A stretch of DNA of 64,000 bases from a virus (taxonomy: Duplodnaviria > Heunggongvirae > Uroviricota > Caudoviricetes). The notes below the pieces were generated by a model. That model saw nothing but the letters and a program-made list of their open reading frames with translations. It was not told where the DNA came from and searched no databases. Shown piece after piece: positions 35,858 to 39,594 of this stretch (the stretch's first letter is position 1; each line of letters begins with the position of its first letter). The position numbers were made by a program, and so were the translations under genes. The stretch spans positions 42,836-106,835 of IMG/VR virus record IMGVR_UViG_3300001336_000001; one strand, 5' to 3'.

Positions 35858-36169
35858 ATGGGCTTAGTTTATTTAATTGCAAATGATGAGTGGACCGAAT
35901 TCAAAATAGGTAAAACCAAATCTAAAAGTGAACGTAGGGTATCTGAATTACAAACGGGTAATGGGTCAAAAATATCACTAGTTAAAACTTATGAAACACC
36001 GCATTATCATAAAGTAGAACGTTGGTTACACAATAAGCACCATAATAAGCGTCTGGTGGGGGAATGGTTTTCATTAACTGATGATGATATAATTGATTTT
36101 ACTAATGAGTGCAAAAAAGCTCACGATACATTTCAATATTTAATTGATGGTGGTAATCCGTTTATTTAA
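35858..36169 (+). CDS. T5orf172 / GIY-YIG-like domain protein (selfish endonuclease-like), plus strand
   Basis: MGLVYLIANDEWTEFKIGKTKSKSERRVSELQ...GEWFSL matches the T5orf172 pattern. The ORF track starts at 35765; the likely start is the ATG at 35858. Confidence 0.55.
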   Translation: MGLVYLIANDEWTEFKIGKTKSKSERRVSELQTGNGSKISLVKTYETPHYHKVERWLHNKHHNKRLVGEWFSLTDDDIIDFTNECKKAHDTFQYLIDGGNPFI

Positions 36170-36917
36170 TTTCAATTAAAAACCAATTACCATCAAAATC
36201 TTCAACTAAACATGTTGAGTTTTCACAAAAATCACCGCTGTTCATGTAATTTTCACTTATTTTTGGTTGGTGCACGTGCCCGCATACAGCAACATCATAA
36301 CCTTTTTGTTTTGTTAATGATTCAGCGTTTAACTCAAAATCAGAAATAAAATTAATTGCACCCTTAACGGATTGTTTAATTGAATTGGCTAAGGAGTGGT
36401 ATGGTAAATTTAATTTTTTTCTAATGTAATTATAAAACGTATTAAACCTTATCACCATATCATATGACCAACCACCTATTACTGCTAACCATCTAGCTTT
36501 CATAATGACAAAATCTAAAATATCACCATGAAAGCAATAATAAGTTTTACCGTTTACTCCAGTATGGACATATTTTCTAACTATTTGTATGTTATTTAAA
36601 CTGAACGGTACAAATGGTTTTAAAAAATCATCATGATTACCCCTGATGTAAATGACTTTAGTACCATCCTCACTTCTTTTCATAAATTTTCTAAATATTT
36701 TAGAACAGTTTTTTTTCCACTTACCATTAGACTTAATTGCCCACCCATCGATTATATCACCATTTAATATCAAAAACTCAGATTCATTATTATTTAAGAA
36801 TTTCAATATTTTATCTGTTTGTGATTGTCGTGCTCCCAAGTGTAAATCACTCATTATTATTGTTCTCCATTTGTTCATATCCCCACCCATTTTTTTATTT
36901 CCAATAATTGTGGTCAT
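36162..36917 (-). CDS. metallophosphoesterase (LpxH-like)
   Basis: MSDLHLG, NGDIIDGW, GNHDDF and GHVHQP motifs. Confidence 0.65.
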   Translation of the reverse strand: MTTIIGNKKMGGDMNKWRTIIMSDLHLGARQSQTDKILKFLNNNESEFLILNGDIIDGWAIKSNGKWKKNCSKIFRKFMKRSEDGTKVIYIRGNHDDFLKPFVPFSLNNIQIVRKYVHTGVNGKTYYCFHGDILDFVIMKARWLAVIGGWSYDMVIRFNTFYNYIRKKLNLPYHSLANSIKQSVKGAINFISDFELNAESLTKQKGYDVAVCGHVHQPKISENYMNSGDFCENSTCLVEDFDGNWFLIEIK

Positions 36918-37602
36918 TTTTTAAATAATTAGTTTTATCAATTTTAAAAGATGTTTTAAATAATAATTTAACCATGAACCAAAGCCCCTTATTTTTAAAT
37001 CTTCTTGTAATTGTATAAATATTTTTATTTATTATCTTAATTTTATCACTCTTAATGGATTTGGATATTATATAATCCTCACCCACTTTAACTTCTTCAT
37101 TAAAACCACCTACAGATTTAAAAGATTCTGAATTAAATAACATAAAACCACCTAAACAAAAGGGTGAATATAAGTGCATAATTTTTTGAATCACCCCAAA
37201 CCAAAAATAGACATAATTATATTCACCATTATCCGTTTTAAATTTATAACTAATTAAATCTTTGTTTTCACTGATAATGATATCTAATGAATCACTTATT
37301 AAGTCAGAATTTAATAAAAATATATCAGCGTCTAAAAATAAAACATATTTAGTTTTAACATGTTTGAATCCACCATTTCTGGCAACTGAAGGTAAGCCGC
37401 CTTCAATTATTGTTAAATTAAATTTGTCATTATTTCGATTTAATAATTTTTTAACGGTTTCTTCATCATCTGATGAATCTGAAATAATAACATTTACACC
37501 AAATATACCTTTTTGGTGATTTAATAAATCAAGTGTTTTTTGAATGATGTCTTTCTCATTCTTACACGGGATAACAATAGTTATTAAATCTTTCATTGAC
37601 AT
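36895..37602 (-). CDS. family-2 glycosyltransferase
   Basis: IVIPCKNE and DxD (FLDADIF) motifs. Confidence 0.65.
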   Translation of the reverse strand: MSMKDLITIVIPCKNEKDIIQKTLDLLNHQKGIFGVNVIISDSSDDEETVKKLLNRNNDKFNLTIIEGGLPSVARNGGFKHVKTKYVLFLDADIFLLNSDLISDSLDIIISENKDLISYKFKTDNGEYNYVYFWFGVIQKIMHLYSPFCLGGFMLFNSESFKSVGGFNEEVKVGEDYIISKSIKSDKIKIINKNIYTITRRFKNKGLWFMVKLLFKTSFKIDKTNYLKNDHNYWK

Positions 37603-37617
37603 TTATTAATAAATATC

Positions 37618-37863
37618 TTAATCATAATGATTTTCAGAATCATCATGCATAGCTTTAAGATTTATTAATTCAATATTAACCCTCCTCAATTCATCATTAA
37701 GAAGGGTTATATCTTGTAGTTTTTCGTTGAACAATTCAAAAGATTCCTCAATTAGTTTAAGTTCATTATCGGTTAAATCATCAACACTGACAGTTATTTT
37801 ACTAGCTAATAATTTAAGATATCTATCCTTAAGTAAGTCCATAAAACTTCTTTCTAATCTCAA
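37618..37863 (-). CDS. hypothetical coiled-coil protein
   Basis: 81-aa ORF overlapping the next start. Confidence 0.3.
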   Translation of the reverse strand: MRLERSFMDLLKDRYLKLLASKITVSVDDLTDNELKLIEESFELFNEKLQDITLLNDELRRVNIELINLKAMHDDSENHYD

Positions 37864-39016
37864 TTAATAAATTATTAACCAATTTTGGGTCAACCTTATT
37901 TGGCAAATCAGAATTATCGAAGATTGAATCCATTTCTTCAATAGCCTGGTCAGCCATTTTAATTAGGTTATCCAAATCAACTTCACCACGTCTAATCGAT
38001 AGTAATTCCTGTGCATCTGGTCGCCTTACTTTAATGCCTTGTCCAGAACCAATTTCTTGGGCCATTCTGATAAGTCTAATACAATGCATCATATTCTTCC
38101 CATCAATCTTTTGACCATGTTCTTGTGTTTCAACATATCTAGCCTCATTTCTATTTTCCAACCATTCTTGATAGTCGGAAAAATCTTTACAATGTTGGGT
38201 GTATCCGTCTTTATTATAGACGATATTACAAATGGGTGTTTCACCTTTTGGGATGCTTGAAAGTCGTAATTGATTTGATTCAGCAGCATTTGCTCCTCCA
38301 CCAACCTTAACTAGTCCTTTATAACCAAACCCCATCGGCATCCCAGCTTCCCTTAACGATTGTTTATAAGAATCTCTAACATCATCTTGTAGAACGTCTG
38401 AATGTGCAAATTCAGTTTTTCGGTCATAATAAACCGCATATACATCTCTAGCGTTAGGAACGTTAGTTACACCACAAAACTTATTGATATATTTTGGGTT
38501 TGCGTGACCATTATTCCAAATTTTCCAAGGGACAGACGTTCCACCATCAATTACATAAACGAAATCAAGAACGTCTTTACGAGTTACTTTGTCTTTATCC
38601 CAATTCTGTTTCTTGTCTAAGCCACGTGCCTTTTTTATTTGTTGTCTAGCGTAACCGCCAAAAGAATCCTTACAAATCTTTGTAATGAAATCATCTTTGT
38701 GTGCTAAGATATCGTCAAATAATGGATGTTTAGATACAATGCAATCTTCAGGGCTGTTTAACAACTCCAAAACTGTTGGGTTGTTGCTTGCCATAAGTTC
38801 AAGGAAACGTCTAATTTCCCAACCAACATAATCCTTATTTACGTTAATTTGTTCAACGTACCCAGTACACAAAATATAATCTTGGGGTAGGATATATACA
38901 AATTTTTTGTCAATGTCGGATGTTGGTGTCTGAGTTCCGTATGCTTGTGACCCAACAATGGTTTCAAAAAGAATTAACCCATTCTCAACCAAAAATTCAT
39001 GTGTAATTTGTTTCAT
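37829..39016 (-). CDS. Pol-beta-superfamily nucleotidyltransferase, function unknown
   Basis: GSQAYGTQTPTSDIDKKFVYI matches the [GS]x9-13DxD NTase signature. It has a roughly 300-aa helical C-terminal extension. Its start overlaps the stop of the 2H gene (ATGA). Confidence 0.55.
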   Translation of the reverse strand: MKQITHEFLVENGLILFETIVGSQAYGTQTPTSDIDKKFVYILPQDYILCTGYVEQINVNKDYVGWEIRRFLELMASNNPTVLELLNSPEDCIVSKHPLFDDILAHKDDFITKICKDSFGGYARQQIKKARGLDKKQNWDKDKVTRKDVLDFVYVIDGGTSVPWKIWNNGHANPKYINKFCGVTNVPNARDVYAVYYDRKTEFAHSDVLQDDVRDSYKQSLREAGMPMGFGYKGLVKVGGGANAAESNQLRLSSIPKGETPICNIVYNKDGYTQHCKDFSDYQEWLENRNEARYVETQEHGQKIDGKNMMHCIRLIRMAQEIGSGQGIKVRRPDAQELLSIRRGEVDLDNLIKMADQAIEEMDSIFDNSDLPNKVDPKLVNNLLIEIRKKFYGLT

Positions 39017-39594
39017 AAATAAATTTTATCTTTATATGTACTAGTCCCAGGTATTAACCCGTTTTTAATTAAATTTATAATATAAATAGCTTGGTCTGTA
39101 TTCATCGATTTAGCTTTCAAGACTCCAGGTTCAAACTTATCTTCAGTATAGTCAACAACCCTACCTATCGTTAAGTGCAACCCAAAAAATGGTCTACCCA
39201 ATCCTAATTCAGACCTTATACCATGCAATTCACTTCTATTTTCCTCTGGTATTTCAAACCAGAAGTTAAAGTCCTTATTAACCGAGACTAACGCAGTGAC
39301 TGGTGTTAAATTAATGGTGATTTCAACTTCACGACCATTCCACTTTTTCTTAATTTCACCCCATTTGTTATTCATTTCTGATGCTCTATCGTTTACAAAA
39401 GACACATGGGCACCCCTTAATGGTCTGTGTAAAGAAAAACCATATCGCTTATGAATATAATGATTATAATAAGCACAAATGTCACCACCAATTTCAACCA
39501 TGGCAACTCTTTTCCATGAAGATTGGTTGACATGTTTAGATGTCTTATCTTCAGGGTCAAAAATTATTTTACCTATTAATGTAATTGTGTCCAT
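39013..39594 (-). CDS. 2H phosphoesterase (LigT/CPDase-like)
   Basis: Two H-x-S/T-x motifs: AHVSFV and LHLTIG. 193 aa. Confidence 0.5.
   Translation of the reverse strand: MDTITLIGKIIFDPEDKTSKHVNQSSWKRVAMVEIGGDICAYYNHYIHKRYGFSLHRPLRGAHVSFVNDRASEMNNKWGEIKKKWNGREVEITINLTPVTALVSVNKDFNFWFEIPEENRSELHGIRSELGLGRPFFGLHLTIGRVVDYTEDKFEPGVLKAKSMNTDQAIYIINLIKNGLIPGTSTYKDKIYL

Follow-up and report, generated by a model that had tools for sequence, protein, structure and literature searches.

The subject of this analysis is a cluster of five genes at positions 36162-39594 of a 64,000-nucleotide (nt) stretch (its full length is hereafter called the window) of IMG/VR record IMGVR_UViG_3300001336_000001, which represents a ~288-kb jumbo phage of the Caudoviricetes, its closest GenBank records being those of uncultured huge phages. 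Five co-directional open reading frames (ORFs) on the minus strand fill this interval exactly, and the same five ORFs were called by an independent gene caller on an identical contig (L007). In the order of transcription, they encode a 2H phosphoesterase of 193 amino acids (aa) (39594-39013), a 395-aa Pol-beta nucleotidyltransferase (NTase) (39016-37829), a 74-aa protein (37842-37618, counted from the first ATG), a GT2 glycosyltransferase of 235 aa (37602-36895) and a metallophosphoesterase (MPE) of 251 or 238 aa, depending on the start codon (36917 or 36878 to 36162). An earlier note, made from the letters of this DNA alone, had listed all five genes, and its domain assignments (Metallophos PF00149, GT2 PF00535, a Pol-beta NTase, here identified as RlaP, and a 2H fold) are confirmed, while its description of the genes as having overlapping stops and starts applies to a part of the cluster. 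As read from the sequence, the 2H and RlaP genes do share an ATGA overlap, with the 2H gene preceding and not following the NTase gene in the direction of transcription, and the RlaP and 74-aa genes overlap by 14 nt; the 74-aa and GT2 genes are separated by a gap of 15 nt, and the GT2 and MPE genes overlap (by 23 nt) only with the upstream ATG of the latter, a 16-nt gap being left with the ATG at 36878. Among the 120 listed MPE homologues (229-243 aa in length), almost all have their start near Met14 of the long ORF, which corresponds to the ATG at 36878. Certain overlaps are thus found at two of the four junctions.

The minus strand holds 88 of the 91 ORFs of the window, and the co-directionality of the cluster is therefore not special. 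A Bacteroidetes-type promoter-like motif, TTTG-N19-TATATTTG, is located at 39599-39629 on the minus strand and ends 4 nt before the ATG of the 2H gene. This motif, a putative promoter, is enriched in the window (18 matches vs. 5.3 +/- 2.1 in shuffled sequences, with 0 of 100 shuffles reaching 18), and in 15 cases it stands on the coding strand, usually directly 5' of a gene start. The motif scan detected no full copy within 36162-39594; scans for sigma-70 promoters and terminators remained at chance level. Since one motif stands 4 nt before the first gene and none inside, a single transcription unit is plausible for the cluster. The motif upstream of the 2H gene is not conserved in relatives (one of 43 loci), so that the promoter-2H-RlaP arrangement is lineage-specific. 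At its other end, the cluster is bounded by a convergent T5orf172/MUG113 (GIY-YIG-like) gene (35858-36169, plus strand; PF13455, PF10544). In ~40 related loci of the near clade defined below, a gene of this type lies on the other strand close behind RlaP, in some cases with an HD gene in between, and overlaps the end of the preceding gene in several of them, a position unusually stable for an endonuclease-like gene.

By its family match, the NTase (37829-39016, minus strand) is a member of the RlaP family, not a CD-NTase-like enzyme or one resembling 2'-5' oligoadenylate synthetase (OAS), and it is predicted to add nucleotides to RNA 3' termini. The Pfam RlaP model (PF10127) matches it with 85.7 bits vs. 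a cutoff of 23 (E-value 5.2e-24, residues 14-130 aligned), phrog_388 matches it over the full length (3e-50), and PF10127 is carried by all 120 listed homologues; a sequence cluster with 100% identity to the NTase is recorded on a contig of 287,855 bp. None of the top 60 matches of the NTase is a cGAS, OAS, CD-NTase, Cid1 or CCA enzyme, and PADLOC gave no match to a CD-NTase or any other defence model. The NTase motif reads G22-S23-x9-S33-D34-I-D36, with a spacer of nine residues and not of ten as previously stated (the length of 395 aa was given correctly). The expected catalytic aspartates are in place: no variation is seen at G22, S23, D34, D36 or D62 among 45 sequences with identities down to 48%, D62 being assigned as the third carboxylate by spacing, not by coordinates. 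The invariant GS...DxD...D pattern, a Pfam score far above the threshold, a location near RNA ligases in a tRNA-rich phage and, as far as modelled, an N-terminal NTase followed by C-terminal helices are shared with the family, which Burroughs and Aravind in 2016 reportedly defined through its linkage to RNA ligases. The phage protein differs from it in size (395 aa vs. a Pfam model of 249 positions, with only residues 14-130 aligned) and in its genomic setting, beside ATP-dependent ligases and a 2H enzyme and not in an RtcB-RtcA operon. An AlphaFold2 (AF2) model, built on a shallow alignment and only moderately confident (mean pLDDT, the per-residue confidence score, of 71), confidently covers only the NTase core and helices 306-391, to be compared with the crystal structure of PfRlaP, where an N-terminal NTase is joined to a C-terminal helical domain with the terminal helix packing back. 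Sequence searches of the PDB with the protein and with its profile returned no useful solved structure, in a PDB copy that does not include PfRlaP.

Experimental data for this family come from two Pseudomonas RlaPs, which add one to two nucleoside monophosphates to the 3'-OH of RNA (December 2025 preprint, PMC12776372), cannot use 3'-phosphate ends, prefer a mimic of nicked tRNA, and partly restore aminoacylation of a tRNA with one anticodon-loop nucleotide missing (PMC12776372). Among the repair NTases of jumbo phages, RlaP has the highest prevalence, and its occurrence follows that of RNA ligases (PMC7824862). The present protein is unusually well conserved, being 75-88% identical across the listed environmental homologues, with a mean identity of 72.5% across 38 syntenic loci vs. 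45% for the neighbouring 2H protein. A comparable level of conservation is observed for the HD_4 protein encoded at 44571-45080 (HD_4 and RlaP are ~72-76% identical across related phages vs. ~45-58% for their neighbours); because both are far better conserved than the genes around them, strong constraint on the two proteins is suggested, perhaps originating from a conserved RNA substrate.

The first gene of the cluster (39013-39594, minus strand) encodes a divergent 2H phosphoesterase related to the 2H-SAK clade of RNA-repair proteins, a predicted RNA 2',3'-cyclic phosphodiesterase (CPDase). Its two H-x-T/S motifs (H63-V-S and H140-L-T) are each positioned at the start of a strand, and the 2H fold is confirmed by an AF2 model (pLDDT 87.9), which by itself does not resolve the clade. 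In the alignment of 36 homologues (RGAH63-V-S/T and GLH140-x-T/S), both histidines are invariant; in a wider set of 95 relatives of confident homology, H63 does not vary and H140 is retained in at least 90%. The protein has no match in Pfam (including 2H-SAK and Acb1) or NCBIfam, its only family hit being phrog_12204 of unknown function; a PDB sequence search with its profile gave nothing useful, and a fold search of BFVD with the model retrieved only uncharacterised viral proteins. A profile search among 1.84 billion representative sequences identified 453 relatives. When the 95 wider relatives were scanned singly, 52 of them matched 2H-SAK (PF22547; E-values up to 0.05, the best being 1.1e-6), compared with three matches to LigT_PEase, two to 2_5_RNA_ligase2 and none to Acb1. 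The 2H-SAK scores of the three relatives for which they were printed lie below the 27-bit cutoff, and the membership of the focal protein in this clade is transitive only.

With 2H-SAK and the bacterial or archaeal LigT/ThpR RNA CPDases, the focal family shares the two HxS/T motifs, the 2H fold and an RNA-repair neighbourhood; it differs from 2H-SAK in being stand-alone (~140-195 aa), the focal protein itself falling below Pfam detection and carrying a C-terminal extension that most of its relatives do not have. 2H enzymes of the LigT and Trl1-CPD types leave a 3'-OH together with a 2'-phosphate. In one relative, the protein is fused to an HD_4 domain of the kind also encoded in the repair island of the window. 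Homologues annotated as hypothetical proteins are encoded by cultured jumbo phages, among them RaK2, PBECO4, Sharanji (gp427), phage G (gp116) and RsoM2USA.

The connection between these two genes was followed across viral contigs, from which 80 loci containing RlaP were retrieved. In the near clade, where the identity of RlaP is 67% or more, the prevailing gene order is an Rnl2-like ligase, p76, optionally a PARP-domain protein with two further genes, c2 and c9, then the 2H gene, variable inserts including homing endonucleases, RlaP, optionally an HD gene, and the T5orf172 gene on the opposite strand. In each of 43 loci, the 2H gene precedes RlaP and shares its strand, at a distance from -4 nt to ~7.9 kb, and the two are directly adjacent in at least five lineages (the window, L026, L038, L041/L073 and L045). 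Elsewhere, a 2H homologue overlaps Thg1 (L001), follows a block of RNA ligase, kinase, RNase T and RNase H genes (L005) or stands between an RNA ligase and RlaP (L003, L094 and L095). Of the optional genes, c2 encodes a 237-aa protein with no Pfam match and precedes the 2H gene in the majority of near-clade loci, either directly or separated by c9 (L003, L013-L017, L094, L095 and others); it is usually accompanied by a 430-aa PARP-domain protein and a Gp23-like fragment, and the window has none of the three. In a distant clade (L043-L087), the gene after RlaP encodes, in ~30 loci, a ~205-aa protein that has a hydrophobic segment at its N terminus and matches DUF6576 at its C terminus, and RlaP is often preceded by a DNA topoisomerase-like gene.

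The remaining three genes show a different distribution. The 74-aa acidic protein (37618-37842, minus strand; the overlap with the RlaP stop assumes the ATG at 37842) has no match in Pfam, PHROG or PADLOC, and its gene directly follows RlaP only in the window/L007, L011 and L091 (74-81% identity); it is a putative lineage-restricted accessory. Its interpretation as a general small partner of RlaP was rejected, since the 74-aa protein encoded after RlaP in the distant clade is not related to it. The GT2 protein (36895-37602, minus strand; PF00535, 1.5e-14, 54.8 bits vs. a cutoff of 23.3; D91-A-D93) and the LpxH-like MPE (36162-36878, minus strand, with an ORF extendable to 36917; PF00149, 1.7e-14) are the first and second genes of a pair that recurs outside this context. 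In two other jumbo-phage contigs, L092 (299 kb) and L093 (201 kb), a GT2 orthologue (1e-74 to 1e-80) lies directly upstream of an MPE orthologue (~80% identical) with a 4-nt overlap, and neither RlaP nor a 2H gene is present within 8 kb of the pair; in L092, a gene ~4 kb away weakly matches TROVE, a domain of RNA quality control. Beside RlaP, neither GT2 nor this MPE was found in any of the 80 retrieved loci, and only L011 has any of the downstream genes, namely the 74-aa gene. A second lineage, L091, contains RlaP, the 74-aa gene, GT2, GNAT and MPE, with the GNAT gene inserted between GT2 and MPE. Both GT2 and MPE are rare in cultured phages. As they occur elsewhere without RlaP or 2H and are missing next to RlaP in almost all relatives, the two genes are, judging by this distribution, a separate module, an independently mobile two-gene cassette.

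The metal-binding motifs of the MPE are complete and of the calcineurin type (DxH, GD, GNHD, HGD, GHxH), a set in common with LpxH, and the best solved relative in a profile search is LpxH (UDP-2,3-diacylglucosamine pyrophosphatase; 5k8k, 3.8e-11), aligned over the full length including the inserted lid region; a PDB search with the protein alone gave nothing useful. The MPE nevertheless departs from LpxH proper in having GNHD vs. GNRD of 5k8k, in scoring far below the NCBIfam equivalog cutoffs (41.6 bits vs. 134 and 29.5 vs. 190), and in being phage-encoded and paired with a GT2 instead of lipid A genes.

Altogether, the interpretation that we consider the most probable, with real room for doubt, is that the cluster comprises two unrelated modules placed side by side and probably served by one promoter: a tRNA-end repair pair of 2H and RlaP, and the GT2-MPE cassette. 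The first module (39594-37618) would act in the repair of RNA, most likely tRNA, 3' ends. Host anticodon nucleases would cut a tRNA to leave a 2',3'-cyclic phosphate, some of them also excising a nucleotide; the 2H enzyme would then open the cyclic phosphate, and RlaP, which needs a free 3'-OH, would restore the one or two nucleotides removed by nucleotide-excising nucleases such as RloC. The final steps may be carried out by enzymes encoded a few kb upstream, i.e., a kinase-2H fusion together with Rnl2-like and Rnl1 ligases. The Rnl2-like ligase (42920-43957, minus strand; PF09414, 1.8e-10; phrog_548, 1.6e-55) is encoded 3.9 kb and the Rnl1-like ligase 7 kb upstream of RlaP. The fusion protein (48589-49506, minus strand), whose gene adjoins the Rnl1-like ligase region, combines a P-loop polynucleotide-kinase-like domain (AAA_33, 8.4e-10) with a second 2H domain in its C-terminal half (weak match to tRNA_lig_CPD; HMT and HIT motifs) and is a candidate 5'-kinase/CPDase healing enzyme resembling the kinase-CPD module of Trl1. 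Hence the proposal of the earlier note that the locus heals and rebuilds RNA 3' ends is supported for the 2H and RlaP proteins (by family identity, by the neighbourhood of ligases, Thg1 and the CCA-adding enzyme, and by the published RlaP activity, PMC12776372), not for the phosphoesterase. The scheme is similar to repair by T4 Pnkp/Rnl1 and by plant and fungal Trl1 in that ends are healed and then sealed, by means of the kinase-2H fusion and the Rnl1-like and Rnl2-like ligases encoded in the window; it differs in the addition of the nucleotide-restoring RlaP, Thg1 and a CCA-adding enzyme, and in the use of several separate 2H proteins vs. one multifunctional enzyme. For the second module (37602-36162), an action on a nucleotide-sugar or pyrophosphate-linked glycoconjugate (e.g., an envelope glycolipid), and not on RNA ends, would be most likely.

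A number of observations weigh against this interpretation. The characterised RlaPs are distant bacterial members of the family, of which the Pfam model aligns only with residues 14-130 of the phage protein, and an insertion of ~170 residues (133-302) is poorly modelled, with pLDDT < 50 in parts. If the 2H enzyme left a 2'-phosphate end, RlaP is not known to extend such an end, and Tpt1/KptA was not found among the scanned proteins of the window. Canonical healing could be performed by the two other 2H domains of the window. Most cases of 2H-RlaP linkage come from a single clade whose members share descent; in the more distant RlaP clade, only one of ~43 loci has the 2H gene. In L041/L073, a promoter-like motif stands between the adjacent 2H and RlaP genes, so that co-expression would not be obligatory, and in 13 of 83 loci such a motif closely precedes RlaP. 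Finally, the role proposed for the GT2-MPE module is a tentative guess from family resemblance.

Among the alternatives, the first would place all five genes in one RNA end-healing pathway, with the 2H protein opening the cyclic phosphate, the MPE removing the phosphate (as the earlier note had suggested), RlaP re-extending the end, and the GT2 and small proteins as accessories. Its appeal derives from the tight spacing of the genes behind a single promoter-like motif with none inside, from the recurrence of the order RlaP, 74-aa gene, GT2, (GNAT), MPE in the second lineage L091, and from the need for a phosphatase at some point, because RlaP cannot use 3'-phosphate ends. Calcineurin-type phosphoesterases do act as RNA 2',3'-phosphoesterases in bacterial Pnkp. 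Moreover, in five loci belonging to another clade, distant LpxH-like MPEs are encoded one to three genes ahead of RlaP; this link was not accepted as strong evidence, as their identity to the MPE of the window is only 34-38% and the loci concerned form one related set. The 3'-phosphatase role is left unsupported, though, because the MPE belongs to a cassette that is self-contained elsewhere in the absence of RlaP and 2H, with 0 of 80 RlaP loci having either of its genes beside RlaP, and because it aligns with LpxH structures over the full length, lid insertion included. The GT2 protein, for its part, has no known place in end healing, and other candidate phosphatases are available in the window (the HAD_SAK_1 protein described below and two more MPEs). 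We therefore regard the joint pathway as unlikely.

An even less likely possibility is that the 2H enzyme acts not on RNA ends but in an NAD-dependent branch of RNA repair, by hydrolysing the ADP-ribose 1'',2''-cyclic phosphate (Appr>p) produced by a Tpt1/KptA-type enzyme. Indeed, 2H enzymes are known to process Appr>p in the KptA pathway (PMC9503650), the PARP-domain protein is encoded two to three genes upstream of the 2H gene in most relatives, and a Macro-domain gene is located 3 kb from the 2H homologue of phage G. On the other hand, the window has neither the PARP-domain gene nor the adjoining c2, KptA (PF01885) was not seen in any scanned neighbour, and, where no insertions are present, the tightest neighbours of the 2H gene are Thg1 and RlaP, both acting on RNA ends.

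The pairing of an NTase with a 2H protein had also been likened in the earlier note to nucleotide signalling and counter-signalling, i.e., OAS- or CD-NTase-like synthesis together with Acb1-like anti-CBASS or 2'-5' oligoadenylate degradation; a related version would be a HalB-like oligo-dA synthase directed against a Hailong-type defence. We consider this reading very improbable: it is unsupported in view of the RlaP identity of the NTase and the search results given above, and it failed every test that could be run. The focal 2H protein also differs from Acb1, the phage anti-CBASS 2H phosphodiesterase (PF23474), in its genomic context and in having no Pfam match to it, as do its 95 relatives, over half of which match 2H-SAK; an Acb1 signal is found in another protein of the window (21348-21917). 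The notion that all five genes cooperate with the GT2 and LpxH-like pair acting on RNA (e.g., by glycosylating or decorating in another way a tRNA nucleoside or a rebuilt 3' end against re-cleavage by host anticodon nucleases), which draws on the apparent co-transcription, the L091 recurrence and the TROVE neighbour in L092, is considered very improbable.

Returning to the genome that encodes the proposed 2H-RlaP repair pair and the adjacent cassette, the window is AT-rich (~30% GC) and almost wholly minus-strand coding. A protein with a type IX secretion system (T9SS) sorting domain and the Bacteroidetes-type promoter motifs point to a Bacteroidota host; the former is a secreted protein of 536 aa (34105-35715, C-terminal Por_Secre_tail) encoded just downstream of the cluster. 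ARAGORN predicts 19 tRNAs in the window, to which Rfam alone adds two candidates (27908-27976 and 52951-53025); the tRNAs are arranged in two arrays (27463-29148 and 51292-53319), and the Rfam scan returned nothing besides tRNAs. The island at 42920-47075, which contains the Rnl2-like ligase, HD_4, Thg1 and the Rnl1-like ligase, is a dense set of tRNA repair and maturation genes; a CCA-adding enzyme is encoded further upstream of the cluster (56305-57447), and an RNase II/R gene is located at 18329-19873.

The third 2H domain of the window belongs to a stand-alone protein (21348-21917) with HIT and HCT motifs and Pfam matches to 2_5_RNA_ligase2, LigT and Acb1 (28.6 bits), which may be the real Acb1-like enzyme of this phage. 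Directly downstream of its gene, an HAD_SAK_1 protein is encoded (20780-21301), with a promoter-like motif between the two, and together they look like a split Swiss Army Knife (SAK) repair protein. By profile comparison, the three 2H domains have no detectable relation to each other and are therefore not recent paralogues. Two further metallophosphoesterases are encoded elsewhere in the window.

Other features of the window include near-identical N-terminal leaders of ~17 aa in otherwise different small proteins. They form three sets, starting with MELRKFIATTIREYLNE, MSKDIRxMIDKVKNFKQ and MRRFDKIKNIRKANLL, in the genes at 40315-40794, 14110-14709, 15669-16205, 16821-17222 and 2187-2603; 13400-13807 and 14991-15422; and 53785-54765 and 54810-55919. 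The shared leaders could reflect paralogue families or a common targeting or packaging signal. A TnpB/IS605 OrfB-family gene (29868-31049; HTH_OrfB_IS605, OrfB_IS605 and Cas12f1-like_TNB) adjoins the first tRNA array, and a 797-aa protein (61569-63962) with weak matches to NTP_transf_2 and SidM_N may be a further nucleotidyltransferase or an AMPylase.

Overall, RlaP and 2H enzymes have already been described as components of tRNA repair in jumbo phages (PMC7824862, PMC9503650), and the present locus leaves the known picture of phage tRNA repair unchanged, being an ordinary, if well-equipped, example of it. What it adds is modest, namely the annotation of a previously unrecognised 2H family and a candidate 2H-RlaP partnership. 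A small unannotated family (phrog_12204), with members in many jumbo phages from metagenomes as well as in phage G and RaK2-like phages, becomes interpretable as a 2H phosphoesterase linked to RNA repair, and RlaP acquires a candidate partner, as the 2H enzyme could help to supply the 3'-OH that anticodon nucleases do not leave. With two ligases, Thg1, a CCA-adding enzyme, RlaP, a kinase-2H fusion, three 2H domains, a SAK-type HAD protein and at least 19 tRNAs, the repair kit of this phage is unusually complete, which makes it a good system for studying how phages counter nucleotide-excising tRNA nucleases in Bacteroidota.

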